Assembly (NCBI GenBank): GCA_021107635.1
Contig: JAIOSL010000038.1
Location: forward strand, 3,512-67,511
Origin: an archaeon
Lineage (GTDB): Archaea; B1Sed10-29; WALL01; JAGHAM01
Direction: 5' to 3'
DNA length: 64,000 bases
Part shown: one piece after another, positions 1-60,110 of the stretch
Layout of the letters: every line of letters starts with the position of its first letter
How positions within the stretch are numbered: the first letter of the stretch is position 1
Notes under the pieces: generated by a model
The model's input: only the letters and a program-made list of their open reading frames with translations
Database searches by the model: none
What the model was told of the DNA's origin: nothing
Made by a program: the position numbers and the translations under genes

Positions 1-1
1 A

Positions 2-1039: not shown

Positions 1040-1045
1040 GCTAAA

Positions 1046-1927: not shown

Positions 1928-1929
1928 AA

Positions 1930-10637: not shown

Positions 10638-10639
10638 AC

Positions 10640-18500: not shown

Positions 18501-20240
18501 TCGCATATTTTTTAGTTCGCCTATTTTAGCAGCGTATGAAACATCGCCTATAGATCCTCCAGCAGCAGCTGCTATTTGAGCATCAGATAGAAGACCTCTT
18601 TGAATCATAAGATCTTTGCGATATCGATCTAGAGGTTTAATCGTTTCAAGGAGTTCATTGGATTTAGCCTTGTGGAAAAATTTGTATTTATCCCCGTCTT
18701 TGGCAATGAATTTAGTTGTTTCTCCTTTGAAGGAAAACTGATCAAAGTTATCTAAGTGTGTAGCAAGAGCAGATAAGTCATCTGTATTAGCAACAATGTC
18801 ATCAGTACTAACAATCGCAAGTCGTGTAAAAACATCGTCAGCCGTTATTCCTGCTCTAGTATTCAATAAGGTATCATCTGCATAAGAAGGAAGTACTTTC
18901 AGGACGGACTCCTTTGAGAAACCAGTACCTATAAGATTATTGCCTACTTCTTTAACAGTATGAGACTTCTTTATATTTAGAGTTTTTTTGATAGTATAAG
19001 CAGAAGGTGAAATGCTTTTGCCTTTAACATGCTTAACAATCTCTGCATAATCTGATTTTTTGACCCCACGAACAAGTGCGGTATCAAGTTCTCTTGATGC
19101 TTTATTGTTGACATGCCTCAAGGCATCATCATGAGTGCCAATAAAGGATTTAAGTTTTTCCACAATAGAAGACCTAACTCCTCTTTTCGTGAAATCGGCT
19201 TTCATCATGCCTGTCAAAGCTTCATCCATCTTATTGAGGTTTTTAGCAGTATAAGTCATTTCTGTTGTCTCAGAGAGGAACAACCTACGCACATCATCAT
19301 GAGAACGCGAGGTGGTCTTTAGCCAGAGCGTGTCTCTTTTGAAGAGTCCGGAAATTGCTGGCTTCATTATTGTTCCGAAAGCATGAGCCATAAAGACTCC
19401 TTGAGTCGCACCATCAAACCACGCGAGTCTTTTCATTCTGGCAGTGAAATACATGTAAGTTCGTGGAATGATAAAAACAGAGCCGCTGGACGGAAACACT
19501 GCCATTGAAGTAGACCATTTTCCTGCCTTCATTCTGGAATAATCCAATGCCACATACCCCCAAGAGCCATCAACACCTTCTTCCATGTTCAAAGTGTTAA
19601 TAAGTGAAATCCAGCTTGTGCCAACAGTCTCAAAAGTCCCATTTATGATTCCAGTGGTATACCCACCAGGCTTAATATTAAAGTCATCAGTTGCCTCGCC
19701 CACACGCTTAGTGCAAACTCCATCGTCAGTATCATTTATTGGAAGTTCTGGACACATAGCAAGGTCTTCTGCCATCATCGCGCCATATTCTACTCTACCA
19801 TCAATCTTAGTGCCAATGATAATTGCATTGTCTGGTCTTAATTTTTGACCTAGTTTAGGTGCGTAAAACACCATTCCGTCAGGGCCATGAAAATATAAAT
19901 TGTATTTTTCCAATCGTTTCTGGGATTCAGTCTGAACACTTGCATTTAAGCCTAGTTCTTCTACAACCTGTGCTTCTCTGTAACGCTGTGCGCTTGTTGC
20001 AACGTCTTGTTGGACTATGCCTTGTATTGCTAGGGCTTGGTCATAGTTTAAGTTGGTGACGTTTATTCCTCCAAGAGAACAGAGTCTGGCATTGATATCA
20101 AAAGGTTCTGTGATTGGAGGGGTTGTTTCGTTAAATGTCATGTTAGCATTGTTCTGTGCCATTACGCCCACAGGCCAGAAAAGAGAGACTAGAAGTATGA
20201 GAGCGAACGTTAAAGGTATGGTTTTGTGCCTCGCGAGCAT
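15549..20240 (-). CDS. Giant exported protein (1563 aa) with N-terminal signal peptide and C-terminal TM anchor; no recognisable domain
   Basis: 4.7-kb uninterrupted ORF; ATG 20240 gives MLARHKTIPLTFALILLVSLFWPVGVMA-QNN; C-terminus ..PEETDW-TFLLYILALAGGIFLA-RTRLKKRTTP; TTG 20258 is an alternative start. Confidence 0.8.
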   Translation of the reverse strand: MLARHKTIPLTFALILLVSLFWPVGVMAQNNANMTFNETTPPITEPFDINARLCSLGGINVTNLNYDQALAIQGIVQQDVATSAQRYREAQVVEELGLNASVQTESQKRLEKYNLYFHGPDGMVFYAPKLGQKLRPDNAIIIGTKIDGRVEYGAMMAEDLAMCPELPINDTDDGVCTKRVGEATDDFNIKPGGYTTGIINGTFETVGTSWISLINTLNMEEGVDGSWGYVALDYSRMKAGKWSTSMAVFPSSGSVFIIPRTYMYFTARMKRLAWFDGATQGVFMAHAFGTIMKPAISGLFKRDTLWLKTTSRSHDDVRRLFLSETTEMTYTAKNLNKMDEALTGMMKADFTKRGVRSSIVEKLKSFIGTHDDALRHVNNKASRELDTALVRGVKKSDYAEIVKHVKGKSISPSAYTIKKTLNIKKSHTVKEVGNNLIGTGFSKESVLKVLPSYADDTLLNTRAGITADDVFTRLAIVSTDDIVANTDDLSALATHLDNFDQFSFKGETTKFIAKDGDKYKFFHKAKSNELLETIKPLDRYRKDLMIQRGLLSDAQIAAAAGGSIGDVSYAAKIGELKNMRIPSAGALSNDEIYHIVKKGYEIKPLEKYSKGQKSFATQRRILSMDWLGHGGLSGKVSALKISNPAIAGLARLPLKSLAAVLQGLYFAARPITLVAYGLHLGGLMFEKEGFLTLASPGITLHWDPESTDTLFTPTSSLILLGIPKEVDALHESGVGGYFVGKHVRDFLVAIGGYEPTMATKYSELGQNLLFGGIMYDNTPQIISMYDKENPRGSTEVELTDKGYLMRITNWENHDMVLIEDPASMRILAEDTAVSALGMRTTNMDIYKHSFGQPNEVRSVFPWTWGISTALRKLGSRTETIALGSLIYLWPSIPIARYSLAPVIAGIVGRGVFGGGEELLTSQTTSMKDLEQCYVQPNYTSEFIDCTSRPPCEAVHAKCEASIGMMSMYLGASGIVQMAAEKSVAFSALNLALGISDFVVLSGVGEWKGKIELTTDCMEELLTCNERSFMIIGGSDYRDPSVIQAEIEESQQIKGLPGLDALPIDNFLEGLNIGQDDSLLKPAQMQLNIHSEMDNATGRMMFEDIYYFHLKDAVIDWLRSDLDLHFCPMIGGNPQDELCVRVSGDTIYVGDKPILTHELVPFKWLDENLPALIIPNTAIKININETTDCAIFTSDPSGKNIKFNQDIISTFEGEHFEELERMMGALRDIETDSGAIYPNIDYNGDYRWERDVPDGSYAYSLNPIAVTAKAKVEFENETFGFRSAIFEGGVVIKKGDFIYIVPKYFRPAISGTEWYELTKGKPLVSDTGLPLEIYDDQGQIMGINGSLTRIPGGDKLGTITKVFGLDDQNQTVGFAFTKDENGTMHLELMHGNQTEVFDIDQIEIDEDSGCILVYEKGKPHVEANLIRRVCLESKPDGSTVINITNPQTGETLGEAIVDWIIGTGGSIKYDRDNNNYVFVNGQPIQMNNEFKTHGFDAITGRPEPPLLQPSAIDEGIPPWKPPTPTGIQIPTRPEETDWTFLLYILALAGGIFLARTRLKKRTTP

Positions 20241-20260
20241 GGATAGATATACTATCAATG

Positions 20261-20270
20261 CATATATAAA
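20261..20270 (-). promoter_or_regulatory. TATA-box-like element upstream of giant gene
   Basis: Minus-strand TTTATATATG centred ~26 nt upstream of ATG 20240, the spacing expected for a leaderless archaeal transcript. Confidence 0.35.
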
Positions 20271-20285
20271 GCTAATCTCATTTTT

Positions 20286-20735
20286 TTAGTATTGTAGTGG
20301 CATGTTAGAGAATAGCCCAAAGACAAAGAATATTGTCCCCCAGAATGCTGCACTTGCTATGAGACAAAGCAGAAATTGTAAGAGATGCCAGGGTAGCATG
20401 GGATATTTTTTCAAGAGTTTTTGGTAAGCTAGTGTAGCAGGTGTCACAGCTAAAAAGAATATTGCCAGGCCGTATAGCAGTGGCACTTGAAATGCTTGAG
20501 GTGTGACTCCGCTGGTTATGAAAACAAAAATCCACGCTAAGAATAGATATATTTCTAAGAGGACTAGTCTCAAGAGCCAATTGAATTCTTTCTTGATTTT
20601 TTTGAAATAGTAGCTGGTGATAGCTACGACTATAAACACTATTATGGATGTTAGGAATGAAGTTATTGCCCAACAGGAAAGTTTTCCATATTCTGAACAG
20701 GTATAAAACAGAGTTAAAAAGAGTTCTAGTAGCAT
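20286..20735 (-). CDS. Polytopic membrane protein (4-5 TM), unknown
   Basis: 149 aa, almost entirely hydrophobic helices; lies between the pilin-like genes and the giant gene on the same strand. Confidence 0.5.
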   Translation of the reverse strand: MLLELFLTLFYTCSEYGKLSCWAITSFLTSIIVFIVVAITSYYFKKIKKEFNWLLRLVLLEIYLFLAWIFVFITSGVTPQAFQVPLLYGLAIFFLAVTPATLAYQKLLKKYPMLPWHLLQFLLCLIASAAFWGTIFFVFGLFSNMPLQY

Positions 20736-20756
20736 TGTTATCTCCTTATCGCATTC

Positions 20757-21404
20757 TCAGTAATAAATCTTTGCTTCCATCATGCAAGCTATTTTTCCAC
20801 AAATCTTTCTTTGCTCGCCTGAAGAATAGTATGGGGGTTTTGGTTTGCATTTGGTTGGAACTCCGGCTTGATCTGGACAAGTATACTTTGGTGTTGGAAG
20901 AGAGTCACAAGCCATTATATTGCCATCTCCATCTCTATTGCATGCTCCTTTCTGGAAATCTTCGACCCACTTACTTATGTTTTCTCCATAAGGATCACTT
21001 GAAGAGATAGGGCAACTGAAAAGGAGAGGGTCTGCATATGTTCCAAAAACAACTGGTGTGTCTGGAGCATATACTGAAAGTTCTAGAGGATGTGGCGATT
21101 GTAAACATAGTGTATGCCATTGCATCATCATAGCCTCATAACGAGGATCAGCATTATCAAATGCTCCAATCATGTAGTAGCCTATTTCATCCAAAAAAAA
21201 GCGTTTCGCTCCTGCGGGTTGCTCGTATTCGATTTCTGTCAGTGTATTAAGAATTCCACTGTCGAATTCGCCCATGTACATGAAATAATATGCTTTAAAT
21301 GAGGTTGCTCCATAAACTGATGCTGCCCAGAATAGTAGTGCTGCTGCGGAAGCACATAACATTAGGAAAAAAATTCCATCAATTATAACTGCTTGGGCTT
21401 TCAT
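20757..21404 (-). CDS. Pilin-like protein (class III signal-like), Cys-rich
   Basis: ATG 21404 makes ATGA overlap with upstream stop; MKAQ-AVIIDGIFFLMLCASAAALLFWAA; C-terminal part has many Cys. Confidence 0.45.
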   Translation of the reverse strand: MKAQAVIIDGIFFLMLCASAAALLFWAASVYGATSFKAYYFMYMGEFDSGILNTLTEIEYEQPAGAKRFFLDEIGYYMIGAFDNADPRYEAMMMQWHTLCLQSPHPLELSVYAPDTPVVFGTYADPLLFSCPISSSDPYGENISKWVEDFQKGACNRDGDGNIMACDSLPTPKYTCPDQAGVPTKCKPKPPYYSSGEQRKICGKIACMMEAKIYY

Positions 21405-21961
21405 GTCCATGTTATCACTTCCAATTCTGCTGTAAGAGCTCGCTTGGTTCCACCATCATCAACATCAACTACAATAGGATATTTCATTGAAACAAAGTCT
21501 CTCCCGTCCATGAATTCCTGAACTGGAACATACTTACCCCAATCATCAAAAGTGGTTCCTCCTTCATAGCATACTGCTTCTGTAGTGGCATCTGAAGGAT
21601 CAAAAGAAAAGTTTTTTGATTCAAAAACATAATTTGGTGTAGATGTATCATAAGTAGTATAGTTGGTTCTGTCTATTCTCATTGCTGCATGAATACCATA
21701 ATTAGAACGAGATGTTTTGAGCAAAGGGCAAGCATAATCCTTCCAATAGTCATGATCCATGTGTTTTCTTTCACGTATTGCTCTAGATATCATGATGTTT
21801 GCACGCATTGCATTTACTCTTGAATTTTTTGCTTCATATACGTTGTAAGTGACTGTGACTGCTCCAAAAAACAGCATTAGTCCTAACAGTATTGGGAACA
21901 TTGCGGGAAAATCATCCCCTATTGGACCGATATACCCTTTTTTCATGTTTAACACAATCAT
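21401..21961 (-). CDS. Pilin-like protein
   Basis: 186 aa; MIVLNMKKG-YIGPIGDDFPAMFPILLGLMLFFGAVTV; ATGA overlap with upstream gene. Confidence 0.4.
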   Translation of the reverse strand: MIVLNMKKGYIGPIGDDFPAMFPILLGLMLFFGAVTVTYNVYEAKNSRVNAMRANIMISRAIRERKHMDHDYWKDYACPLLKTSRSNYGIHAAMRIDRTNYTTYDTSTPNYVFESKNFSFDPSDATTEAVCYEGGTTFDDWGKYVPVQEFMDGRDFVSMKYPIVVDVDDGGTKRALTAELEVITWT

Positions 21962-22668
21962 TTACAATCGATAGGAATATCTGCTGGATCAAGGAAACAA
22001 CACTCAATAAGTCTATCCATTGATTCTTTAGCATTAGTATCTAATTTTTTCTTGCTTGCGATGCAAAGCACGGGACCGTCTCTATAAAAGAGCAAACCGT
22101 CATCTCGTTTAGACCCGTCTATGGAAGGTCTTAAAACCAGGTCTTTATCAACAGTGTCTAGGAATAATGGATAAGTAGGTATATTTGTACTAGTAAGACG
22201 TCCTTTGAACATGTGAACTTTCCGAATGTCATCTGGAGGTTGACTGGGAAGTTCTAGTGCAACTGCTGCAACAAATTGTTCTATGTCATTGATTTCATCA
22301 TTGGCATAAGCATCTTCTGCTGGTTGTCCTGTTTCCCACGTAAGAAGGAATACGATTCTTTCAGAAGATGGAGACCCCTGATGAGTGATGCCTGCAGTAT
22401 AACTTCTTATTTGAGTACTTTTGCCTGTACCTCCACTAATCATAATTTTGTTTTCTATTGGCAAGATAATGCTTCCGGAGGGAAACATGACTACTGAGTT
22501 AGCTGATTCGGCCCATAGCATAATTACTGCTCGAGCATTATCTTCAATTACTCTTTCTTGATATATGCTCAACACTCCAGTTAATACTACTACAAGTCCT
22601 AACAAGAATACCATTAGAACAGTCTTTGACATAACCCACATTCCGAGACCGCGTTTAGCTTGAATCAT
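21958..22668 (-). CDS. Pilin-like protein
   Basis: ATG 22668 gives ATGA overlap with upstream stop; MIQAKRG-LGMWVMSKTVLMVFLLGLVVVLTGV. Confidence 0.4.
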   Translation of the reverse strand: MIQAKRGLGMWVMSKTVLMVFLLGLVVVLTGVLSIYQERVIEDNARAVIMLWAESANSVVMFPSGSIILPIENKIMISGGTGKSTQIRSYTAGITHQGSPSSERIVFLLTWETGQPAEDAYANDEINDIEQFVAAVALELPSQPPDDIRKVHMFKGRLTSTNIPTYPLFLDTVDKDLVLRPSIDGSKRDDGLLFYRDGPVLCIASKKKLDTNAKESMDRLIECCFLDPADIPIDCK

Positions 22669-23267
22669 GTGCATTCACTTAAAGTCCCATAACAACAAAT
22701 TCTGAACTTGTTTGCAGTGCCAGTAGAATCTTTGAGAAAAACTAGAGAGTAGGATTTAGGTTCTGTTAAGTTAAGGCCAAACATGCGTTCTCCGCCAGAA
22801 GTCATTTCAATATTCCTATAACCTCTGTCAGTATCAAGCATGGGAGCAGGACATCCTCTAGTATCTAGAGTCAAACCCATTGGAATTCTAACACATACTG
22901 GTTGTCCAACAACACTAGCAAATCCATCTTGTTCCCCTTCCGCAACAATTATTCTACATGAACCTACATTACAAAATTTAATGCAATCTTCTGCTCTAGG
23001 ATTACGTATTGTAATATTTTTTGTCATTACACTGCCACAGGAAAGATCTCCAAAGTTTAGGTTAATCATAGTTGCGTTTCCGGTTAAACCGGTTGCTATT
23101 TCTATTTCACTAGCAAATCTTTGCATGTTTGATTGAATTTTGTTTTCACATTGCAATCTGTCATAATTAGTGTACATTTGTGCAATTATTGGAAGTAGTA
23201 GCGCTAGCATTGCTGCTGCAAGAAATAGAGCAAAAGGTCCTTCTTCTTGTCCTTTAGTCCCGAACAT
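22665..23267 (-). CDS. Pilin-like protein, Cys-rich
   Basis: 200 aa; MFGTKGQ-EEGPFALFLAAAMLALLLPIIA; 10 Cys in the globular part. Confidence 0.5.
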   Translation of the reverse strand: MFGTKGQEEGPFALFLAAAMLALLLPIIAQMYTNYDRLQCENKIQSNMQRFASEIEIATGLTGNATMINLNFGDLSCGSVMTKNITIRNPRAEDCIKFCNVGSCRIIVAEGEQDGFASVVGQPVCVRIPMGLTLDTRGCPAPMLDTDRGYRNIEMTSGGERMFGLNLTEPKSYSLVFLKDSTGTANKFRICCYGTLSECT

Positions 23268-23325
23268 ATGAGAGAATACGATAAACTAGGTTATAAATGT
23301 TATCTGGAGGAAGATTACGGTATTA

Positions 23326-23454
23326 TTAGAAGCCCATGCCAAAAGATGCTGATTGAAACATAGGCTTGATAACACTTACTAAGAGAATAATGGCGATGGC
23401 AGCCAGTATCAAAAGGTAGATGGGCGTCCAGTTGACATCACCTTTAGAGTTCAC
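23326..23454 (-). CDS. Unlisted 42-aa ORF: mini pilin-like/single-TM protein
   Basis: GTG start; MNSKG-DVNWTPIYLLILAAIAIILLVSVIKPMFQSASFGMGF*; below the 60-aa ORF-track cutoff; fills the only gap in the pilin gene run. Confidence 0.3.
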   Translation of the reverse strand: MNSKGDVNWTPIYLLILAAIAIILLVSVIKPMFQSASFGMGF

Positions 23455-23463
23455 TTAAACACC

Positions 23464-23943
23464 TTATGCGTTAACGTTAAAACCAATGATATACTTTCCA
23501 TTATTGTTGTATACTCTGATTTTTCCGCTTACATCCTTAGTTGCAGTAATCACCATTGGATTATCAGCATCACCACAAGAACCAGTTAAATCAAAGAATA
23601 TGCTAGTGAAGTTATAACCAGCTGGGCAGGAAGCTAGGTCACCTGGAGTTAAAGTACCATTACAGAAACAAACGGTTCCTTGGTTGACTCCTGCTTGGTC
23701 AGCTATACCTGAAGTGGACATGACATCTCCTTTAACAAATTGTACATTTTGAGGAGATACTGTTCCAGAGCCTCTGGCCTGTTTTACTGAAGAAATGCTT
23801 TGAGTTATTACGTGCATTGGTTCTCCTACAGGCACAATAAAGCCTTGGAGCATTCCAAGAATTATTACTAGAATGGTTCCTGCTACTACAGCAGCAATCA
23901 AAAGTTTAAAAGCATCAAAAGCTTGTCCTTTTTCATTAAACAT
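23464..23943 (-). CDS. Pilin-like protein (candidate major pilin)
   Basis: 159 aa; MFNEKGQ-AFDAFKLLIAAVVAGTILVIILGML; GAGGT SD ~9 nt upstream and own TATA-like CTTTTTAAAC; 4 Cys near C-terminus. Confidence 0.55.
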   Translation of the reverse strand: MFNEKGQAFDAFKLLIAAVVAGTILVIILGMLQGFIVPVGEPMHVITQSISSVKQARGSGTVSPQNVQFVKGDVMSTSGIADQAGVNQGTVCFCNGTLTPGDLASCPAGYNFTSIFFDLTGSCGDADNPMVITATKDVSGKIRVYNNNGKYIIGFNVNA

Positions 23944-23998
23944 GGGGTATTACCTCAAAATAAACTACAGAAAAGAGGTTTAAAAAGGTTTCTGTTAT

Positions 23999-24448
23999 TT
24001 ACCAGTTGGCAGGAGAACATTCTTCTTTATCAATGTAAACTCTACACTCTCCCAAATCGTCACATGAGGAACAAACTTTTACTTCGTATCCTTTAGTCAA
24101 AGAAATAAACGTGCAACCATTGCCAGGAAGAGCACAACCAGGAAATTCACAGAATGCTGCATCACAAAATATTTTTACATTAGTTGAGGGGGGTATGCCT
24201 GATTTTATTATAAGGCTATCAGAACTGAAATCTTGATTTTTAAGCCAGGCTGTTTTAACAAAAGAGTGTCCTGTACCTCTTGCATTATACGCACTTTTTA
24301 GGACATCAGAGCTGATGGTTTGCACATCAGTGCCATGAGTGATGTAAGTAATCCATTGAACAACACCCCACAAAATTGCTAAAAAAGCCATTGCGAAGAC
24401 AGCACCTTGTAATAGCTTAAACACTGAAGAGTATTGTCCTCGATTCAT
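23999..24448 (-). CDS. Pilin-like protein, Cys-rich
   Basis: 149 aa; MNRGQ-YSSVFKLLQGAVFAMAFLAILWGVV; 8 Cys in the last ~60 aa. Confidence 0.5.
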   Translation of the reverse strand: MNRGQYSSVFKLLQGAVFAMAFLAILWGVVQWITYITHGTDVQTISSDVLKSAYNARGTGHSFVKTAWLKNQDFSSDSLIIKSGIPPSTNVKIFCDAAFCEFPGCALPGNGCTFISLTKGYEVKVCSSCDDLGECRVYIDKEECSPANW

Positions 24449-26544
24449 GCTTGCACCATTTTCAAGGAAAAGAACGCTACTATAAAGAAAATCATCATTG
24501 CTATTGGTAATGCTTTTGAAATACTAATTTTGAAAGCTAAGTCGTTCTCTCCTTCTGTGACTTGAGATGCAAAATACATTAAAATTGTCACTATTTGAAC
24601 CATGTATATTACAATCACTAAGAATAAAATGTTCTGGTCAAAGACAGGACCTCCTTCAGCTCCCCCAAACATGCTTCCAACACTGGTAAGAGGAGCAGCT
24701 AAGCCACCGACCCCTCCAGGTATTGACCCAGAAGAAGCAGGCATTTGACCTGAAACAGAACCTAAAGCATTACTTATTACTCTTTGAAGAGCTACAGTAA
24801 TTCCAAGTACTGAAGGCGCTATGAGCGTGCTCATGACGCTCATCATGCTTGTGATATCTTCTAGCATTCCTTTCAATGATCTTTCTACTTTTTGAGAGTC
24901 TTGTAATTGAAATGAAAGTGAAACTAACGATCTGGCTGCTGTTTGAACGCCTAGAGTTAATGATTCTACAACTATTTGCATGGTTCCTCTTATAAAGTCT
25001 GATGGCACGTACCTCAATGAACCATATGCTTTGTCAAACAAAGCCATTTTGAGTGTCATGCCCATTACTGTGATGTTTTGAAGTGTAGGAATGAATATTT
25101 TTTTGGTAACTGGTGAATTAGGAAGAAAGTCAGCTGTATGTTTGAGAGCTTCTTCCATGGGTTTGCCTTCTCCTAACCGTGATGCAAGAATGTATAAAGT
25201 GTCTTGAAAATCATTCTCCATTTTAACTAGTTCTAATTGGGCGTGACGTTTGTCTTTGTTGTTTGCCCAGAGATAAAAACAGATTGCAAAGACTATTCCA
25301 AGAGACCATCCCATGTATTCTATTAAAGGCATGTATGCGTCTACTTGTTCTGTTTGCCATGCTGGAGGCATTGGATTGACTATTGGATTGAATATGTACC
25401 CTGCTATTATTGTTGCAGCCATGATAGCTAAAGAAACAACAATCACGGGCAACTGATACTTGCCTATTTGGAACCATCCTCGTTTTGGGAGCCCAGGCAG
25501 GTTATCAGGAATTTTTGGTATTGGCCTGGCAGGGGGTCTTTTTCCTAGAATAGACTTGGCCATTATTAGAGCAATCAATGGAATGATAATGTTGTAGATT
25601 AGTATTAATGCGACTGGAGATCCAAGAAAACCCATTGACTCTGATGCCATCATTGAACCAACAGGAATTACAATGATTAGTAGTAGAGGAAGCAGAACAC
25701 CGAGATAGTATAGGTATATGGAAGGCTGATGCATTGCACGAGAATACATGTCCATTTTGTCTTTGATTCCTTGTAAGGCATCAGTTACTGCTTTGTCCAA
25801 GAGTTCATTGCGTTTGCCTTCATCTACTTCCATTACTGAAGAACGAATCAGCATGAGCGCGTGTTTGAATTCTTCTGAATATTCTCCCCATTTCCATGCC
25901 ATGTAATCGAGTGCTTCTTCTACTGTTCTGTATTTTCCTATGTGAATATCATAGCGTAGCTTGCGAAAGTCTTTTGCTACCCTGCCATGTCCATGATCTG
26001 CTGCAAATTTGATTGATCGTTCTAGATTGGGAGAGACTTTCATTGCCATGACGATATAGTTTATGATTTCAGGAATGTATCCAAGAGATTTTATTTTTTC
26101 TTTTTCTGCTGCTTTGAACGGATAAATTTGAATGTAGTAGCCTAGACCAAATGCTACTGCGAAAGGTACAAGATAAAGGATCATAGACATTCCTGACAGA
26201 GGATGACCAATTAGAGTGGTTCCACTCCATATAATCGGTTGTGATAGGATGTATTTGAGCAGGTAGTTGAGTAAAGCCCATCCAAAGGCTAGGACAAATC
26301 CTATGACCATGACAAACATTGGCGCAGAATTAAATTCTTGTGGAGTGAGATTCCAATCAAGAAAAGCTAGCGTGACTTCATATTTAGGATCTATTTCTTT
26401 TTTAGCGTTTTTCCCGAAGTATTTGTGCGAAAACTTACAGAGTTTAACATACCAGTGTTCTTTTTGGTCTATCCCATCCAGTTTATGTTTTCCTCCGCCA
26501 AACACGGCATCAAAAAAGGCTTTACTGCTGTTTTGCTTCTTCAC
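24445..26544 (-). CDS. FlaJ/PilC-like platform protein with two T2SSF-like domains (fused form)
   Basis: 699 aa; two helical domains (IINYIVMAMKVSPNLERSIKFAA..; DTLYILASRLGEGKPMEEALKHTA..), each followed by TM bundles; overlaps the end of the ATPase gene. Confidence 0.7.
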   Translation of the reverse strand: MKKQNSSKAFFDAVFGGGKHKLDGIDQKEHWYVKLCKFSHKYFGKNAKKEIDPKYEVTLAFLDWNLTPQEFNSAPMFVMVIGFVLAFGWALLNYLLKYILSQPIIWSGTTLIGHPLSGMSMILYLVPFAVAFGLGYYIQIYPFKAAEKEKIKSLGYIPEIINYIVMAMKVSPNLERSIKFAADHGHGRVAKDFRKLRYDIHIGKYRTVEEALDYMAWKWGEYSEEFKHALMLIRSSVMEVDEGKRNELLDKAVTDALQGIKDKMDMYSRAMHQPSIYLYYLGVLLPLLLIIVIPVGSMMASESMGFLGSPVALILIYNIIIPLIALIMAKSILGKRPPARPIPKIPDNLPGLPKRGWFQIGKYQLPVIVVSLAIMAATIIAGYIFNPIVNPMPPAWQTEQVDAYMPLIEYMGWSLGIVFAICFYLWANNKDKRHAQLELVKMENDFQDTLYILASRLGEGKPMEEALKHTADFLPNSPVTKKIFIPTLQNITVMGMTLKMALFDKAYGSLRYVPSDFIRGTMQIVVESLTLGVQTAARSLVSLSFQLQDSQKVERSLKGMLEDITSMMSVMSTLIAPSVLGITVALQRVISNALGSVSGQMPASSGSIPGGVGGLAAPLTSVGSMFGGAEGGPVFDQNILFLVIVIYMVQIVTILMYFASQVTEGENDLAFKISISKALPIAMMIFFIVAFFSLKMVQA

Positions 26545-28810
26545 TTGCCTTCCTCCTTGATAAAAGCTCTTTCAGTAATTGATTTTCTACCCAATTTGTC
26601 CACTCGTTGTATACTTTGTCGTATACTACGCTTCCATGTTCTCTTCTGCTCTGTTCTTGGAATAATAAATACATGTCATTGGCTCGCACGCTATTCACTG
26701 CTTCCAAAAGTTCTGGAATTTTGTGCGTGTTTTTTAGATCCACCAAGTGTTGTTTGCTTTTGCCTCTGTACGTTATGTCTGTCCAAATAGTATCAATGTC
26801 CATTCCACGCATTTTACGTATTTTTTTAAAGAATTCAGAATCTTCATACAACGTGTTTTTGTGAATAGTATGCTTGTCTTTTGTTGCATCGTAGGTAACA
26901 AGATCAATCAACCCGCCTTCTTTTTGAGGATCTTCATACCAATGCTTTCCTATTTCAGTAATTTCAATAAGCCTTCTCGCACGCCTTATTGAACCTTTGA
27001 AACGAATAGGCGCAGAAGTAACACACATGTCTGTAGCTTTAAATGAAGTGTTTGGCACGCCCAGATCATTCACTACCCTATCCCAAATAGAATAAGCATT
27101 CTCTCCGTGAATAGTACCCATAACAACGTTTCCTACTGCACCAACGCGCATTGCTTCATATAGTACTAAGGCTTCTCTGCTCCTGACTTCACCCATTATG
27201 AGTACGGATTCTCCAAGCCTGAGCGCGGTTCTGAGTGCGTCTTCTGGACTGACTTCTGATGCGACTGCTCCTACTGAGATTGAGGATCTTGTTTTTAGTC
27301 TGCAGATGTTGTAGCCGATTTTGCGCATTTGTTCGACTGGAATTTCTAGTGTGTCTTCTATTGTAATGATTCTTTGTGAGCGTAGGATTTCAAGCATGAG
27401 TGACATCAGCATTGAGGTTTTGCCTGAGCCTCTGCTTCCGACGACTAGCGTGGATGCTTGGGCATCCAAGAGGAATGAGAGTAGTCCTGCTACGTCTGAG
27501 GGAAACATGTTCACGTCTATGAATTGGGGGATAGTCCATGGAGTGGATTTGTGGATTCTTAGAGCAAAACCAATGCCATCCGGTGATAATGGTTTGCCGA
27601 TGGTTGCTGTTCTAGTATGATATTCTTGTAAGTCGAAGTCTATGACTGGATGTGCTTCATCGAATGGCCTGCCGCTCATTGAACGGAACCGGGATACAAT
27701 GCTTTCTGCTTCTTCGTTTGAGAAAATGACGTTGGTTTGACAAGGTCCGTATTCACTGTGTACTATGTACACTGGTTTGTATCCTAGTGGTGCATCTAGG
27801 TATACGTCAGTAAGTTTTTCGTCTGAAAGCAACAAGCCCATGATGCCAAAGCCTATGGTATACCTTACTACAATGCTTGCTAGTGCACTTACTTCTTCTG
27901 GTGAAAGAGCTATCTTGTTTTCTCTTGCTATGTCGTTTATTGTTGTTTCATAGATTTTTTTGAAATATTCTTTGCTTGTAGCTAAATCAGTGAACTCTAG
28001 TCCTTCTGGATGGTATCCGCTTACTATTTCTTTGGTTTTGGACATGAGAAAATAGTGTTCTGGGCTGAGAGCGTACTCTGGCGGATCCAGGTAATACAAG
28101 TATTCTATTTTTTCTGGATGTTTGTAAATGCTTATGTTTGTGTCTTTTACTTTGTACTGGTCAAGCAATTCTATTTCTTTCGGAAGGTCAAAAGAGATTC
28201 TTGAACCGATAAAAGAAGGTTTTAATTGTGCTTCAAACATGCTCCTGTAAAATCCTCTGCCTGGTGGCACTGTCTTAAGTTTACGAATATAGCTTTTTAG
28301 TTCTTGAATTAGTTCGGTAGATTCCAGGTTAGCGCGTAGGAATTCTAGTGTTTGAATGTACTTTTCTGTGCAGTGCTTGTATTCTGGTTGGATTATTCCA
28401 AGCTTGGCTTTTTCTAGTTCAATTGCTTCCAAGCATTTTATGTAAGAGCGTATTGGGTCTGTGCGTAGTAGGTTGCTTGCTATGTCTACTACAATGCCTC
28501 TGCGTTTTGGTAGGAATCTAGAGCATTTTTCTCCGCCTAGTAAGGAGGGTGCCCAGACTGCTGCTGCTTTAAATTTGTTGACTAGGCCTGCAATTTCTTT
28601 TAGCATTAAAGTTTGTTTTTCATCGTATACTCTTTCGTATACGTCAGAAAGAATTATTCGATCTACTTCACCAGTGGTCAGAAATTCTACAACTTGTGCC
28701 ATTCTTTGTGGATAATCTGCTATGCTTGGGCCGTGAGGAGAGTCGCTGCAGTCAATTGTCAAGTATCTTTTTCCGCCCTTGTTGACTACTTTAACTTTGT
28801 CACTAGCCAT
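26522..28810 (-). CDS. FlaI/PilB-type secretion ATPase with long N-terminal extension
   Basis: ATG 28810 (MASDKVKV..; TTG 28825 alt); Walker A GSRGSGKTS (27423-27449), Walker B SVLIMGEVRSREA, His box GNVVMGTIHGENA. Confidence 0.85.
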   Translation of the reverse strand: MASDKVKVVNKGGKRYLTIDCSDSPHGPSIADYPQRMAQVVEFLTTGEVDRIILSDVYERVYDEKQTLMLKEIAGLVNKFKAAAVWAPSLLGGEKCSRFLPKRRGIVVDIASNLLRTDPIRSYIKCLEAIELEKAKLGIIQPEYKHCTEKYIQTLEFLRANLESTELIQELKSYIRKLKTVPPGRGFYRSMFEAQLKPSFIGSRISFDLPKEIELLDQYKVKDTNISIYKHPEKIEYLYYLDPPEYALSPEHYFLMSKTKEIVSGYHPEGLEFTDLATSKEYFKKIYETTINDIARENKIALSPEEVSALASIVVRYTIGFGIMGLLLSDEKLTDVYLDAPLGYKPVYIVHSEYGPCQTNVIFSNEEAESIVSRFRSMSGRPFDEAHPVIDFDLQEYHTRTATIGKPLSPDGIGFALRIHKSTPWTIPQFIDVNMFPSDVAGLLSFLLDAQASTLVVGSRGSGKTSMLMSLMLEILRSQRIITIEDTLEIPVEQMRKIGYNICRLKTRSSISVGAVASEVSPEDALRTALRLGESVLIMGEVRSREALVLYEAMRVGAVGNVVMGTIHGENAYSIWDRVVNDLGVPNTSFKATDMCVTSAPIRFKGSIRRARRLIEITEIGKHWYEDPQKEGGLIDLVTYDATKDKHTIHKNTLYEDSEFFKKIRKMRGMDIDTIWTDITYRGKSKQHLVDLKNTHKIPELLEAVNSVRANDMYLLFQEQSRREHGSVVYDKVYNEWTNWVENQLLKELLSRRKASEEAKQQ

Positions 28811-28854
28811 GAATAAAAAACGCAAGAGTTTTATTTATAGGTGATGGTAGCCTG

Positions 28855-30591
28855 CTAGGAACAAGTAGCACTTCCTGGACTACCACTACAAGTCGTTCCT
28901 TCAACTAGACAAACAGTAGCGTTATAGCAAACGCACTTATCACTTCCGGTGCATGTACTGTCTTCTCCAGTGTTGATTTTTGTATTAAGAACTGCACTTG
29001 GATTAGTGACATCACATCGTGGTATTGAACCACTTGATTCACAGAATGCATATAGTGAACCTTCACAGAGTCCTCCTGGCAAAACAGAACAATCTGTGCA
29101 TGTGTGTGGAACGAATTCAGTTCCACATCCTGTTTCATTTGTGCATCCACACCATTTTCCATTTAGAGTGTCACAATCTGTTTGTTTCTCAAAACAAGAA
29201 CAGCTTGTGGCACAATCAACAAGGCCACCTATAGGAGGATCGCTTGATCTGTTTAATACTTGAGTATTGCCTGTGCCGCATTTTGTTTGAGCTACAGGTT
29301 CTTCACAAACTGCTAGTAAATGCCCTGCAGCGGAATCACAATGACTGAATGTTCCACCGAGAGTACAGCCAGTAGTACAATCGCCGTTTCCAAAAGTTGC
29401 ATCACAATAGCCTCCTTGACCTTCACAGTCTATTGTAGTGTAACAAGTGCAAAGTTCTGTTCCAATGCAACCAAAAACATCATCTCGAGTATCTGGCTTT
29501 GTCTTTAGGACTCCGCTTTCACATTCAGGAAGAGATGCACCAGAATCTGTTTTACACTGTGCACCTTTGCCAACTGTTGCTCCTTTACCAGTTACATCAT
29601 ATGCATAGTAATCACTACAAGCTATATCTGGAGTACAGTTAAATGAGAAGCCTGCTGCACATTCGGGCTTCAAATCATCAAGCACAAATTTAAGAGGACG
29701 CCGTTTCAGTTCAACCTTAAAACCGGAAAGTTGGTCTTCACAACAAAGATCCATCCCATCACTCAAATCGTTTCTGCAAGTAGGTTTATGGAATAGATTA
29801 GAACCACATTTAGTTGTGTCAGTAGAAACCCAAGTATCAACAAGCAGGTCAATATCATCACAATCATTTCTAGTATCCTCACAACAATGAAACTGTCCAT
29901 CTGTACACTTCTGATTATCAGCAAGATCATACCAATAAACATCAGCCCATTCGTAACGATAACATCCGCCTCCACACCATGCCCGATTCCATTTCATATA
30001 TGCTTTGAATTTTTCAATATAAACTTCAACACCATCAGGCAATGATGCAGTAAATAAGATATAATTACCACCACACCAAGCCCAACTTTGGTCAGTCATA
30101 CTTCCAGTAATACTCATACTCATAAGATCTTTTGAAGTATCTGGTTGTATTGTTCCCACTGTACTGGAAAGTTCATATGGATTGCCTAAAGCGTCTTCTA
30201 CTTCAACTACAATATGCCAAGGAGGATCTCTGCCAGTAACCATTGTTTGAACGTTCTCAACTAAGAATAGACCGTCCTCATCCAAAGTTGTTACTGTTTC
30301 AGTTCCCTCTATAGTAACTATGACTGTAGCTCCATTAATGATTCCAACTCCTTCTCTTCCATCAATTAAATCAGGATCACACACAAAACCAAGCACATCA
30401 AAATGCGTGAAATCAATATCTCTTATTGCAATATTTACTTTAGGACCTGCAGTATCCTTAGCAATATAAACAGTAATATTGGCTTGTCCTTCCTCATCAC
30501 CATCTGCAGCTGAAACTAAAGGACTGTCACCTAAAAAAAGCATTCCTGCTACAACCAACAAAACCAAAAAAGCAACGAACCACGCTCTCAT
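28855..30591 (-). CDS. Cysteine-rich secreted protein (578 aa), unknown
   Basis: ATG 30591 gives signal peptide MRAWFVAFLVLLVVAGMLFLGDSPLVSA-ADG; C-terminal two thirds packed with Cys (..CCEDTRNDCDD.., ..CTCYTTIDCEGQGGYCD..); first gene of the minus-strand block. Confidence 0.75.
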   Translation of the reverse strand: MRAWFVAFLVLLVVAGMLFLGDSPLVSAADGDEEGQANITVYIAKDTAGPKVNIAIRDIDFTHFDVLGFVCDPDLIDGREGVGIINGATVIVTIEGTETVTTLDEDGLFLVENVQTMVTGRDPPWHIVVEVEDALGNPYELSSTVGTIQPDTSKDLMSMSITGSMTDQSWAWCGGNYILFTASLPDGVEVYIEKFKAYMKWNRAWCGGGCYRYEWADVYWYDLADNQKCTDGQFHCCEDTRNDCDDIDLLVDTWVSTDTTKCGSNLFHKPTCRNDLSDGMDLCCEDQLSGFKVELKRRPLKFVLDDLKPECAAGFSFNCTPDIACSDYYAYDVTGKGATVGKGAQCKTDSGASLPECESGVLKTKPDTRDDVFGCIGTELCTCYTTIDCEGQGGYCDATFGNGDCTTGCTLGGTFSHCDSAAGHLLAVCEEPVAQTKCGTGNTQVLNRSSDPPIGGLVDCATSCSCFEKQTDCDTLNGKWCGCTNETGCGTEFVPHTCTDCSVLPGGLCEGSLYAFCESSGSIPRCDVTNPSAVLNTKINTGEDSTCTGSDKCVCYNATVCLVEGTTCSGSPGSATCS

Positions 30592-30655: not shown

Positions 30656-31180
30656 ATGAAGAAAAAAACAATGCAATCCAATAACCTAACCAAAGCAGTA
30701 AAATTCACACCCACTTTGATGATAGTTGGAATCATAACATACCTAGCATTTTCACTCGTAATGACTTCATTGCAATCATTCACAGCATTGACTTCAAGCT
30801 TAATTCTTTTCTTGTTTGGAATAAACTCAATAGTGATTGGTACTGCACTAACAGGGATTTTTTCAATGCCAGTAGAAGTAGCTCCTCTATGCGTTGGAGA
30901 CTTGGAAATAGCGGTGCTGGTTGGTGCTATTGCTGCAACAGAAGACAGAACTCACAGAGAACGCTTACTAGGAATAATAAGTGGAATTGCCTTTGTGCTT
31001 TTTTTGAATCCAATAAGGATAGCAATGACCATTGCAGCAGGAGTATGGTGGGGTTTTCAAACAATGGATTTTATTCATTCAATCTTGTTCAGAATAACTC
31101 TTGTGACAGTAATCATTGGCTTTTATGTTCTCTGGTACTTAGGCTGGCCATCAATAAAGCGTAAGCTTAAAAAGCATTAA
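30656..31180 (+). CDS. Exosortase/archaeosortase-family protein, short form (candidate)
   Basis: 174 aa, ~5 TM; PLC79VGD, then ~39 aa, then LNPIR121I, then DFIH141S reproduces the Cys / N-x-x-R / His order and spacing of the exosortase-archaeosortase core; ATG 30671 is an alt start. Confidence 0.5.
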   Translation: MKKKTMQSNNLTKAVKFTPTLMIVGIITYLAFSLVMTSLQSFTALTSSLILFLFGINSIVIGTALTGIFSMPVEVAPLCVGDLEIAVLVGAIAATEDRTHRERLLGIISGIAFVLFLNPIRIAMTIAAGVWWGFQTMDFIHSILFRITLVTVIIGFYVLWYLGWPSIKRKLKKH

Positions 31181-31196
31181 GTGATTATTAGAACCC

Positions 31197-33428
31197 ATGA
31201 AACGGGGGTTTAGTATATTTACTCCGATGGTGGGGACTATTTTAATCACTATTGCACTTCTTATTGTAGCATCCATACTACAAAGTGAAAGATTTGCTGT
31301 TGCTGGAACACTACAAAGCTACCAAAGCATCAAAATAGCAAATGTGATGAGAGAAGCCAAAAGCAGAATAGAAGAAGAACTTAGAACTAGCGTATTCGAA
31401 AAAGCGATGACTTCAAGAGTATGGATTAACAACTGTTATGAAGATGGAATAGTAACTGATTATTATGCTGGAACAAAATGCGAAAGGGTTATGACCGATG
31501 GAGCACTCACAGAACTAGAAACAAAAATAGCAGATTTATTGACCAAAGAAACCATGACGTCAGTGACAAACAGGTTTGAAACCGCCTACAAGTCAGAAGA
31601 CATAACACTTGAATTCAATCCTGAATTAGAAACAGGAGGAAAATATGAGGGAAATCTTTCAAAAATTTTGGTGAAACCAATAGAATTTCCGCCAGAACTT
31701 AAGGGAAGAGCTAGAATAACCCTTAATTTTAGCAAACTAGTTGACAAGGATACAGGAGAACGAATCGCCATTGCAACACTAAAAACAGAAACCATCTCAA
31801 TGAAAATATACTTAGACCCAACAGTAAAAGTGTTTGAAAGTCCCGACCCTATCAACAGTTATTCAAAAGAACTTGGAAAAGCATTCCAAGGATTCACACT
31901 AATGAACAAAGACTGGCATGAAGTTGGAGACTTAACAATGGCAGAGTACACTGGCAGTTATGGGAAGATAACTGCAGGTGTGAGCGCCCATGGAGATGGA
32001 AGCAAATGGTATCACTATGCGTATGCACTTCAAGCAAGACAGCCCAAAAAGAATAATGATGGAAGAGGACCTGGATATATCACAACAGGCTGGCAAAAAG
32101 GAACTGAGTGGGAAGAAGGACATGGATTTAGATATACCAACAACATCAAAGAACCAATAGTAATCCATGATAAAATAAGCAACCTCATGAGCAAAATAAA
32201 ATCAACCGCGATTACGCCGTTTATTGGAGACACTAGCACACCAATAGATTCTACATGTCAAATAGACATAATGAAAAAATCCGAGATGACAAAACTAAGC
32301 AAATATTTATACCAAGACCAGATATCTGGAGCTAATCCCAAAAAGGTAGAAGAATACTTTGTGGCAGGATACCTAAAACATGAAAATGATGAATTATATT
32401 TAATGAACAGCTATTACCCTACAAAAAAATTCATTGAAGATGTATATACTAAGTATACTGGAAATTGTGACGCAAATAGCGTAGCAGATCCTAACAATTA
32501 TGACATTATTCCTGGTGGACATATAACCCCAACTGCTAGTCCAGTAGACAATTGGCTCCCAACAGGAAAACCATGTGCAGATGGTACTTTAGGCGCATCC
32601 AATGCAAATGATGCTACCTTTGAAGACTGGGCACTTTACTTAAGAAACAGAGATCCTACAGATGGGGGAGCTAAAGATTTGACGGTTGTAAACACAATAG
32701 AAAAATACGATGACAAGTACGTTCCAACTGGTCTTAAAAAAACAGTAGATGACATTACAAATCACATTAAAAGCACCACAGAAGTCAAAGCAGCCATGGG
32801 TTATGGAACAGCAGATACAGTCAAATATAAAATAAATGTAACAAGCTATCAATTCTATGCAATAAACACAAACATAACTGGAGGAAACAATTGGCAATGC
32901 GGAGAATTCATGGCATATTACGTTCCACAATTTTCATTTACAGGAGTAACCTGCGCGAGTGATTTAGTAAACTACATTGGAGGGCTAACTAGTGAAAAAG
33001 ATGCGTTCTTCCTCTCACTACCATTGAATTACACATGTCCAACATTCACAATGGTAGCTGTGAAAGAAGAAATGGACCTTTTCAGAAACAACAAAACCCA
33101 TCCTGGAGAAATAATACATCCAGTTTATCATGTTACATTTACCAGAAGAAAAGCAGATTATAGTAAGGGACCTGCAGAAAATAACGTGCCAACAACAGAA
33201 TTATGGGAAGGCAGCCAACTAGACAAAACAGATGACGCATTCGCAGACAGATTCTTCCAACAAACTGAAACACTCCTAACAAATGACGTCAACAACAACT
33301 ACCGAACTAATATGACTGTAAGAAAATGCATTTACACCTATGAAACAGGGCAACCAGGAGCAGAAATATTTGGTGGGAGCTGTACTTGGCTGGCAAACAA
33401 TCCAGAAAGCTCAGAGTACATAAAATAA
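31197..33428 (+). CDS. Very large pilin-like protein (743 aa)
   Basis: MKRG-FSIFTPMVGTILITIALLIVASIL class III signal-like N-terminus followed by a ~700-aa hydrophilic domain. Confidence 0.5.
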   Translation: MKRGFSIFTPMVGTILITIALLIVASILQSERFAVAGTLQSYQSIKIANVMREAKSRIEEELRTSVFEKAMTSRVWINNCYEDGIVTDYYAGTKCERVMTDGALTELETKIADLLTKETMTSVTNRFETAYKSEDITLEFNPELETGGKYEGNLSKILVKPIEFPPELKGRARITLNFSKLVDKDTGERIAIATLKTETISMKIYLDPTVKVFESPDPINSYSKELGKAFQGFTLMNKDWHEVGDLTMAEYTGSYGKITAGVSAHGDGSKWYHYAYALQARQPKKNNDGRGPGYITTGWQKGTEWEEGHGFRYTNNIKEPIVIHDKISNLMSKIKSTAITPFIGDTSTPIDSTCQIDIMKKSEMTKLSKYLYQDQISGANPKKVEEYFVAGYLKHENDELYLMNSYYPTKKFIEDVYTKYTGNCDANSVADPNNYDIIPGGHITPTASPVDNWLPTGKPCADGTLGASNANDATFEDWALYLRNRDPTDGGAKDLTVVNTIEKYDDKYVPTGLKKTVDDITNHIKSTTEVKAAMGYGTADTVKYKINVTSYQFYAINTNITGGNNWQCGEFMAYYVPQFSFTGVTCASDLVNYIGGLTSEKDAFFLSLPLNYTCPTFTMVAVKEEMDLFRNNKTHPGEIIHPVYHVTFTRRKADYSKGPAENNVPTTELWEGSQLDKTDDAFADRFFQQTETLLTNDVNNNYRTNMTVRKCIYTYETGQPGAEIFGGSCTWLANNPESSEYIK

Positions 33429-59989: not shown

Positions 59990-60110
59990 CGGGCCCGAGG
60001 GGATTCGAACCCCTGATCTTCTGGTATCTTCCACCCAAAAAGGGAGGTCTCGAAACTGTAGGTTCCGAAGTCCGAAGCCAGATGCCTTATCCAAGCTAGA
60101 CTACGAGCCC
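59990..60110 (-). tRNA. tRNA-Arg (anticodon UCG) with 46-nt intron at canonical 37/38 position
   Basis: Minus strand GGGCUCG-UA-GUCU..AGGC-A-UCUGG-CUUCGG[intron 60071-60026]A-CCAGA-AGAUC-AGGGG-UUCGAAU-CCCCU-CGGGCCC-G; 7-bp acceptor stem; anticodon at 60075-60073; no encoded CCA; T-rich tract follows. Confidence 0.8.

Follow-up and report, generated by a model that had tools for sequence, protein, structure and literature searches.

DPANN archaea are ultrasmall and mostly dependent on direct contact with a host, and the molecules that make this contact are largely unknown. We asked what kind of surface machine is encoded by a minus-strand operon at 20286-30591 of a 64,000-nucleotide (nt) stretch of archaeal DNA (GCA_021107635.1, contig JAIOSL010000038.1), which we call the window and to which all positions refer. 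The initial annotation of this DNA had described an ATPase, a platform protein and a run of small pilin-like genes, and had proposed an unusually pilin-rich adhesion pilus with features of the EppA-dependent (Epd) type. We consider it probable, at roughly 0.72, that the operon forms the central part of a locus for a type IV filament (pilus), one that DPANN archaea of the Micrarchaeota/Iainarchaeota type (Micr/Iain below) have conserved, with an assembly mechanism and an attachment role that can be inferred for it. The operon itself follows an ordinary plan; the less expected part is the conserved bracket around it, formed by an exosortase-family gene and a giant protein that carries a sorting signal.

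The gene array and its pilus-type ATPase and platform

Reading from 30591 downwards, the open reading frames (ORFs) of the minus strand encode a Cys-rich secreted protein of 578 amino acids (aa; 28855-30591), an assembly ATPase of the FlaI/PilB/TadA superfamily (762 aa; 26522-28810), a polytopic platform protein (699 aa; 24445-26544), a series of pilin-like proteins named here after their product lengths in aa, and a polytopic membrane protein of 149 aa (20286-20735). The pilin-like genes are p149 (23999-24448), p159 (23464-23943), p42 (23326-23454), p200 (22665-23267), p238 (21958-22674), p186 (21401-21961) and p217 (20757-21410). The public gene calls (locus tags K8R43_04000-04045) agree with the window ORFs except for p42, which is absent from GenBank, where it would lie between K8R43_04025 and K8R43_04020, and which is called in the locus of the closest relative (L003). 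Order, strand and lengths were thus as first described. Of the operon products, only the ATPase carries a name other than 'hypothetical protein' in GenBank, and the 'hypothetical' products have no Pfam domain.

Junction lengths were computed from the ORF coordinates. The ATPase and platform genes overlap by 23 nt, platform and p149 share a 4-nt ATGA, and p200/p238, p238/p186 and p186/p217 overlap by 4-10 nt depending on the choice of start; the other junctions are gaps of 9, 21, 44, 55 and 58 nt. The coordinates therefore bear out the earlier statement that most junctions are ATGA overlaps or gaps of less than 60 nt. The starts at 30591 (~27 nt), 28810, 23267 and 20240 are each preceded by a TATA-like box at a distance of 25-30 nt, which suggests several leaderless transcription starts, a weak signal in a genome of 60% A+T.

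The window ORFs were scanned against Pfam and NCBIfam. The ATPase passed the cut-off of the Pfam T2SSE model (5e-21) and matched the NCBIfam models FlaI (6e-42) and TadA (1e-35), with neither score anywhere near the equivalog cut-off (for FlaI, 144 bits against 550). Its closest solved structures are A. fulgidus GspE (2OAP, 3e-35), FlaI (2e-24) and CpaF (1e-22). The Walker A motif GSRGSGKTS is conserved, with G-RG-GK-S invariant, and an N-terminal region of ~290 aa is specific to the family, residues 1-255 matching no solved structure by sequence. The platform combines two T2SSF-like halves in a single chain with about nine hydrophobic segments. Pfam T2SSF was detected at 7e-4 on residues 161-294, below the gathering score, and in hhalign comparisons the N-terminal half aligned with the first of the split platform genes found elsewhere in the window (95.7%) and the C-terminal half with the second ones (~81%). 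The initial annotation had called this platform fused. That is right relative to the split neighbours in the window but nothing special in itself, since a single two-domain platform is the usual FlaJ/PilC arrangement (PMC6668835).

No Pfam or NCBIfam match to ArlH, ArlF/G, ArlC/D/E, ArlX or archaellins was obtained in the operon or the other window ORFs scanned. With the T2SSE and FlaI/TadA matches, the two-domain T2SSF platform and no archaellum parts, the system reads as a pilus-type machine and not an archaellum, as had been proposed.

Pilin-like proteins with a conserved N-terminal motif

The small proteins encoded behind the platform begin with [KR]-[GA]-x followed by a hydrophobic helix, and this arrangement is conserved across loci. 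In the sequences given here a slash marks the predicted cut. p149 (MNRG/QYSSVFKLL...) and p159 (MFNEKG/QAFDAFKLL...) are headed, major-type paralogs (hhalign 99.8%) without a Pfam match, and their common family motif is [KR]-G-Q-A-F-x-x-F-K-L-L-I-A-A-V-V-A. The first member of the four-gene block that follows, p200 (TKG/QEEGPFALF), has an N-terminal 90 aa paralogous to theirs (hhalign ~97% with either paralog across the first 70-90 residues) and the family motif KGQESAPFELLIA (K-G-Q-E-S-A-P-F-E-L-L-I-A). The remaining families show at most weak N-helix similarity by hhalign. Within the block, p238 (236 aa from the second Met; AKRG/LGMWVMSK...; motif K-G-[LI]-x-x-W-x-x-S-K), p186 (181 aa in GenBank; MKKG/YIGPIGDDFP...; motif K-G-[YF]-I-G-P-I-G-D-D-x-P) and p217 (217 or 215 aa depending on the start; MKA/QAVIIDGIFF...; motif K-[GA]-Q-A-A-I-x-D-A-L-F-F) are the second, third and fourth genes, each single-copy and found in 17 loci. 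The window copy of p217 has nine Cys.

The gene for p42, which starts with GTG, encodes a headless pilin-like protein of 42 aa (SKG/DVNWTPIYLL...KPMF) whose family motif is [KR]-[GA]-[QD]-x-x-W-T-P-I-Y-L...K-P-M-F, also written W[TN][PS][IV]YL...[IV]KPMF. None of the operon's other small proteins is as well conserved: the median identity to the window copy is 46%, compared with 16-29% in the others and 27% in the platform. In size p42 matches Flp and Epd pilins, and the Tad/Flp pilins and the primary Epd pilin are likewise headless (10.64898/2026.04.22.720090), and p42 may be a real filament subunit.

The motif [KR]-G-Q had been noted at three N-termini, NRG/QYSS (p149), EKG/QAFD (p159) and TKG/QEEG (p200). 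We found these as stated and extend Gln at position +1 to five families, because p217 begins MKA/QAVI and the homologs of p42 (SKG/DVNW in the window) carry KGQ or RAQ. An alignment of 79 sequences from four families had Gln at +1 with a conservation of at least 90%.

Structure prediction was consistent with this reading. In the p159 family, G6, Q7 and two Cys are invariant in 45 sequences, and the p159 profile recovered 610 representative clusters in 1.84 billion proteins, so that the family is of modest size. The AlphaFold model of p159 (pLDDT 88.7) folds residues 9-35 into a helix and has a compact alpha/beta head, which bears the two invariant Cys. In the model of p186 (pLDDT 73), a helix of 46 residues (13-58) packs on a beta-sheet; the homolog search for p186 gave four sequences, hence a model of moderate quality. 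As modelled, the helix-plus-head 'lollipop' architecture of both proteins is pilin-like. Neither model has a significant match to a solved pilin. The pilin-like reading of the small genes in the initial annotation holds.

Conservation of the locus in DPANN archaea

The nearest relatives of the ATPase (77-51% identity) are proteins named Diapherotrites/Iainarchaeum and Micrarchaeota, which identifies the source as a DPANN archaeon. A pattern scan for full-length relatives, with one genome per species, found the ATPase in DPANN genomes of at least 595 species, a lower bound, and more than 1000 full-length homologs were recovered. The locus is thereby among the most widely conserved surface machines of DPANN archaea, and nearly all of it is named 'hypothetical'. 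ATPase identity is 47-61% in Micrarchaeota and Iainarchaeota and 37-42% in Woesearchaeota, Pacearchaeota, Nanoarchaeota and Undinarchaeota.

For the comparison of gene content, 84 loci were fetched (L-numbers), their ORFs were called and iterative hidden Markov model (HMM) searches were seeded with each window protein. The platform gene directly follows the ATPase gene in 64 of them. Downstream, Micr/Iain loci have a fixed plan of one to three copies of p149/p159, then p42, then p200-p238-p186-p217. The p149/p159 family was present in 26-27 loci, p42 in 21 and the full four-gene block in 17. In L006, L023 and L027 the block sits elsewhere in the locus and is nevertheless intact, and so behaves as one unit. 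Two phyla share these families in an unchanged order, seen in 17-27 independent loci, which places the array far beyond chance.

One major pilin with four further ones is standard for type IV filaments, as in ComGC with ComGD-G, GspG with GspH-K in the type II secretion system (T2SS), or the five essential Epd pilins. The description of the operon as unusually pilin-rich was accordingly too strong: one to three major-type genes and a four-gene minor block, conserved across the loci of the family, amount to the ordinary plan.

In distant phyla, manual reading of L041, L060 and L080 (Pacearchaeota) revealed runs of genes after ATPase and platform, several starting with KGQ-type motifs. The pilin HMMs, applied at E <= 1e-4, did not extend the families to loci of Woesearchaeota, Pacearchaeota or Nanoarchaeota.

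Two features of the ATPase orthologs are recorded here in their own right. Intein and homing-endonuclease domains (PF14528, PF14890) lie inside the orthologs P0011, P0014, P0082 and P0118, whose lengths are 930-1300 aa. In L031 and L032, loci of the Iainarchaeum type, a second, shorter ATPase homolog (516-522 aa) is encoded a few genes past the platform.

An exosortase-family gene and giant proteins bracket the operon

The limits first given for the operon, 20286-30591, were too narrow. On the same strand, 27 nt downstream, begins the gene for a giant secreted protein with an N-terminal signal (15549-20258; 1569 aa from TTG, or 1563 aa from the internal ATG at 20240, which is preceded by a TATA-like box and is the start called in L002). 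Upstream, at a distance of 64 nt, a divergent plus-strand unit starts with an exosortase-family gene (30656 onward). Since both the downstream giant and the divergent unit are conserved, the unit extends to about 15549-49082. The exosortase-family gene, the giant with the sorting signal and the class-III-signal protein at 31197 had been overlooked, though they belong to the conserved neighbourhood.

The product of the exosortase/archaeosortase-family gene (174 aa; 30656-31180, plus strand), named 'archaeosortase/exosortase family protein' in GenBank, scored 40.9 bits on TIGR04178 (cut-off 23) and 28.3 bits on Pfam Exosortase_EpsH (1.4e-6; cut-off 25.7). No named subfamily among the NCBIfam models (ArtA-D, XrtH, others) was reached, the scores being far below the cut-offs: 42.5 against 150 for ArtB, the best at 6e-11, 26.4 against 86 for XrtH and 20.7 against 125 for ArtD. 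In the homologs (n = 26), a Cys (LCxGxxE), an Arg (NxxR) and a His (HDxLFR) are at least 90% conserved. Counting only loci with enough upstream sequence, 24 of 32 Micr/Iain loci had the gene, as against none of the 37 from Woesearchaeota, Pacearchaeota and Nanoarchaeota, and it often lies no more than 100 nt from the ATPase start or overlaps it.

The 1569-aa giant ends in ...IPTRPEETDW, a transmembrane (TM) helix and RTRLKKRTTP. Other loci likewise have giants, of 1440-1680 aa, at this end of the operon; those of Micrarchaeota match each other at 1e-32 to 1e-114, and an HMM built from them matches the window giant at E = 1.8e-12. In 7 of 10 syntenic giants, [LI]-P-x-x-P-[EG/x] stands a few residues before a TM helix and a basic tail. 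This tripartite C-terminal anatomy is that of a sortase-type sorting signal, and its form suggests that the 1569-aa giant is probably a substrate of the exosortase-like enzyme.

Next to the exosortase-family gene lies that of a 743-aa protein (31197-33428, plus strand) with a textbook class III N-terminus, MKRG/FSIFTPMVGTILITIAL. The motif KKGF[ST]LFTPLVGT is kept in seven loci, in which it always adjoins an exosortase-like gene and a giant; in L006 the family member and the giants come after p42 and are co-directional with it. No Pfam match was obtained for the window protein, whose N-terminus would fit a large 'modular pilin' or a pilus-displayed protein.

Two further giant surface proteins complete the plus-strand unit, an N-terminally anchored one of 2877 aa (33470-42103; family in 10 loci beside the system), which has MtsC-like Asp-rich C-terminal repeats, and a second of 2297 aa (42189-49082; family in seven loci) with a paralogous N-terminus. 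Their common cytoplasmic N-terminus of ~45 aa, YYxxLDxLxxKGIPxYxxVDPxExxGIPxxPL, is followed by a TM helix (33470-33650 and 42189-42370) and may be an uncharacterised anchoring or targeting module of DPANN giant surface proteins. Giants of S-layer-like or adhesin type beside archaeal type IV filament loci are a known theme (10.64898/2026.04.22.720090).

Prepilin peptidase and accessory proteins

The initial annotation had seen no A24 prepilin peptidase in the window, and our searches agree with it: Pfam and NCBIfam scans, a scan for the GxGDxK motif and a phmmer probe with the A24 protein of L080 all gave no match. The ~8 kb and ~10 kb past the window ends, making ~80 kb in all, contained none either, nor did the 10 kb on either side of the operon in 83 of the 84 loci. 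The sole locus with a linked prepilin peptidase is L080, in which a 280-aa Peptidase_A24 protein (19751-20593 of that locus, plus strand; Pfam 6e-13; motifs SVQDLKQREV and FAGGDGK) ends the pilin run. An unlinked enzyme has a precedent in the cultured Micrarchaeon Mia14, which has a single FlaK-like peptidase not linked to its two type IV pilus (T4P) loci (PMC5498576).

Two proteins of the neighbourhood were considered as substitutes and set aside. The 149-aa polytopic protein contains no Asp and so cannot be an aspartyl (A24) peptidase; it has no Pfam or NCBIfam match and is a poorly conserved accessory found in four loci only. The signals that exosortases process are C-terminal and lie at the outer membrane face, and class III leaders are removed on the cytoplasmic side. 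The exosortase-like enzyme has a probable C-terminal substrate in its own locus, and L080 has a normal A24 enzyme.

The Cys-rich protein was likewise rejected as a core component. It has 45 Cys (7.8%), concentrated in residues 200-578, a signal-peptide-like N-terminus (MRAWFVAFLVLLVVAG...SAADG) and no Pfam match. A homolog of 25% identity was found in L003 only, and nothing stands at the equivalent position in Micrarchaeota loci. As its only homolog is in the closest relative, we regard it as a lineage-specific accessory, and its inclusion among the operon components in the initial annotation does not extend to the system as a whole.

Proposed assembly and role

In the assembly that we propose, an unlinked A24 prepilin peptidase would cut the leaders after Gly or Ala at the cytoplasmic face. 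p200, p238, p186 and p217 would form a priming and tip complex, as do the minor pilins of bacterial T4P, T2SS and Com systems. The hexameric ATPase would then drive the platform, and p149/p159 and/or p42 would be pulled from the membrane and stacked beneath the tip complex into a thin filament. The exosortase-like enzyme would process and anchor the giant with the [LI]PxxP[EG] motif, TM helix and basic tail. From homology and lifestyle, the most likely role of the neighbourhood would be attachment to a host cell or to a surface. On a DPANN cell (ARM-1), thin filaments have been observed that 'could represent archaeal pili' (PMC11329633).

A further step is to couple the two halves of the locus. 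Here a short, so far unclassified archaeosortase subfamily of Micr/Iain archaea with a new [LI]PxxP[EG]-CTERM signal would be coupled to the filament machine and would anchor the giant or join it to the filament, so that sortase, adhesin and pilus form one host-attachment organelle, possibly with p42 in place of the headed pilins as the filament core. We offer this as a tentative idea, possible and short of probable. If true, the coupling would be a new joining of two separate surface-assembly systems, together with a new archaeosortase sorting signal.

Several observations weigh against a pilus of this kind. No solved pilin was significant when the p159 and p186 models were compared by Foldseek (best E 0.68 and 0.09), and a search of the p159 profile against the PDB found no relative, the best hit (E 0.22) stemming from the membrane helix only. 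When 138 members of the pilin-like families were scanned singly against Pfam (sets of 79 and 59), the matches were isolated and weak, with Class_IIIsignal in 1 of 79 and N_methyl in 1 of 59; Flp_Fap appeared in 3 of 79 and 1 of 59 at E 0.0017-0.14, the member at 0.0017 not being assigned to a family. Pilin heads are, on the other side, notoriously undetectable by sequence (PMC6393860). The predicted mature N-termini have a polar stretch of three to eight residues and no Glu at +5, unlike textbook pilins. Leader cleavage is only predicted, as no A24 enzyme lies within ~80 kb, and it may not be universal, since p238 of the Iainarchaeum subgroup starts at MLxFILSK with no leader. In Woesearchaeota, Pacearchaeota and Nanoarchaeota, ATPase and platform often stand alone, with neither pilins nor sortase adjacent. 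The pairing of sortase and substrate and the adhesion role draw on synteny and analogy only.

DPANN loci with FlaI/TadC and unrecognisable pilins had been predicted before in general terms (PMC6393860), and the T4P systems of Mia14 are treated in one paragraph of PMC5498576. On a DPANN sortase-pilus link, on pilus function in Micrarchaeota and on DPANN pilin families, the literature that we searched gave general statements only. The composition of the families, the four-gene block, p42 and the sortase link appear to be new, none being described in the literature that we found, of which our coverage was incomplete. The resulting parts list, with two headed pilin paralogs, a mini-pilin, a putative tip block, a sortase-family enzyme, a giant and the 743-aa protein, provides concrete experimental targets.

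Alternative explanations

The locus could instead encode a pseudopilus or display machine, similar to a T2SS or a bindosome, in which a short filament would display the giants and the 743-aa protein or help to export them across the S-layer. The position of the system beside these proteins, the co-directional arrangement after p42 in L006 and the layout of one major and four minor subunits, which is that of T2SS, would all suit such a machine, and large proteins carrying class III signal peptides that functionalise type IV filament machines have been suggested to be common across archaea (10.64898/2026.04.22.720090). The ATPase also matches the bindosome model BasE at 4.6e-22, but this lies far below the cut-off and is much weaker than its FlaI and TadA matches. 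Neither the giants nor the 743-aa protein showed a domain of substrate-binding proteins, and the thin filaments on the ARM-1 cell speak against this reading. We think a display machine unlikely.

We also rate as quite unlikely a true Epd-type pilus (system 1, EppA-dependent) with a headless major pilin, as in M. maripaludis, the type to which the initial annotation had leaned. Its background was correct: EppA substrates have a conserved Gln at +1 that EppA needs, and the Epd sites RAQI, KGQV, KGQL and KGQI (PMC4371748) are mirrored by the RGQ, KGQ, KGQ and KAQ sites of the operon. p42 is headless like the primary Epd pilin (10.64898/2026.04.22.720090), and one Micrarchaeota T4P system has been placed with the Methanococci/Thermococci group (PMC5498576). 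PibD-type peptidases, however, tolerate varied residues at +1 (PMC4371748), so that Gln+1 alone does not imply EppA, and neither EppA nor any other A24 enzyme was found within ~80 kb of the operon. Epd/system 1 is moreover defined by two single-domain platforms, a second ATPase of the FlaH/TadZ type, short pilins and a dedicated large peptidase (PMC6668835; 10.64898/2026.04.22.720090). The platform is a single two-domain protein here and in 64 loci, against the two genes of Epd, and the operon proteins gave no Pfam or NCBIfam match to a KaiC/FlaH/TadZ-like second ATPase. The acidic residue of the pilin-like families is at +4, +6 or +7 instead of +5. The DUF361/Class_IIIsignal signature (PF04021, QxSxEFxxL) was absent from 78 of 79 members, the outlier at E 7.5e-7 being probably from L036, with the N-terminus AQISLEFLII. 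With one two-domain platform, no second ATPase, no Glu at +5 and no DUF361, the operon falls outside the Epd type. The two other ATPase sets of the window, which have split platforms, are better candidates for system 1 or 4A.

A DNA- or nutrient-uptake pilus resembling the monoderm Com pilus would suit an organism with a reduced genome, DPANN archaea having reduced biosynthesis and depending on hosts (PMC5498576). The layout of ATPase, platform, major and four minor subunits matches comGA-GG, but this likeness is generic to type IV filaments, and no ComEA/ComEC-like receptor or channel, nuclease or retraction ATPase was found in the window ORFs scanned. We hold an uptake pilus to be very unlikely.

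That the small genes are not pilins at all and encode unrelated N-anchored membrane or secreted proteins beside an ATPase/platform pair would accord with the empty Pfam, NCBIfam, PDB and Foldseek comparisons to pilins and with the missing nearby peptidase, but is highly improbable given that [KR]-[GA]-Q directly before a hydrophobic helix is conserved per family in two phyla, that the genes keep a fixed position after the platform in 17-27 loci, that the models have helix and head, that an A24 peptidase ends the equivalent run in L080 and that sequence methods miss pilin heads (PMC6393860).

Other features of the window

Besides the operon, the window holds two further ATPase sets. One, at 9075-11898, encodes a 520-aa ATPase in which an N-terminal 2x[4Fe-4S] ferredoxin-type domain is fused to T2SSE, followed by a pair of short platform genes with one T2SSF domain each; the set has no pilin genes next to it. 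A secretion ATPase that bears redox clusters seems unusual. This set lies ~10 kb from the operon, a situation comparable to the second ATPase homolog of L031 and L032. The other set is at the window start (143-3192). Its '298-aa' ATPase (143-1039) is a 606-aa PilB3_C-type ATPase cut by the window edge (L085/L086, the sequence before the window start), and two split platform genes come after it. Pilin-like genes follow at 3189-5379 with the N-termini MKKG/VSGIEF, NKG/FSKILE and GKRA/QFFLII, the last in a protein of 425 aa, and then a 1106-aa protein (region 1-8699). Its split platform makes this set a better Epd/system 1 or 4A candidate than the focal operon.

The content of the window is archaeal, with deoxyhypusine synthase, a PAC2 proteasome chaperone and a family B DNA polymerase. 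A tRNA gene of 121 nt at 59990-60110 on the minus strand (Rfam 49 bits) was missed by ARAGORN in bacterial mode; at this length it presumably contains an intron, fitting an archaeal genome.

Comparison with known systems

The operon does not qualify as a Tad/Flp system: Flp_Fap matches are sporadic, the platform is a single protein and not TadB/TadC, and there is no TadZ. With the Epd pilus of M. maripaludis the operon shares KGQ/RAQ sites, Gln at +1, more than one pilin with a short headless one among them, and a presumed role in adhesion. It differs in that Epd has a split platform, a FlaH/TadZ-type ATPase, Glu at +5, the DUF361 signature and the dedicated large peptidase EppA.

The Com pilus and the T2SS pseudopilus have the same order of ATPase, platform, major pilin(s) and four minor ones, and p200 is the most major-like of the block, as are GspH and FimU. 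The subunits, in contrast, have no detectable similarity in sequence or fold to those of Com or T2SS and neither an N-methylation nor a Glu+5 signature; secretin and DNA-uptake genes are absent, and the organism is a single-membrane archaeon.

The exosortase-like enzyme resembles the archaeosortases ArtA-ArtD, of which ArtB with VPXXXP-CTERM is the best match, and the exosortases in being small and polytopic, in its Cys, Arg and His, and in having nearby a large protein with a Pro motif, a TM helix and a basic tail. It is set apart from them by scores below all subfamily cut-offs, by the motif [LI]PxxP[EG] in place of PGF, PEF, PIP or VPXXXP, and by its synteny with a filament operon.

In overall design the locus is close to archaeal T4P as a class (Makarova, Koonin & Albers 2016; the DPANN 'dark-matter pilin' loci in Fig. 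2A of Makarova et al. 2019), with which it shares a FlaI/VirB11-family ATPase, a TadC/FlaJ-type platform, a fast-evolving run of genes with class III signals, large surface proteins and an unlinked peptidase. Within that class it is distinguished by an ATPase of ~760 aa with an N-terminus of ~290 aa, by pilins outside Pfam and arCOG-style annotation, by the fixed block of four genes and the headless gene of 42 aa, and by a conserved exosortase neighbour.

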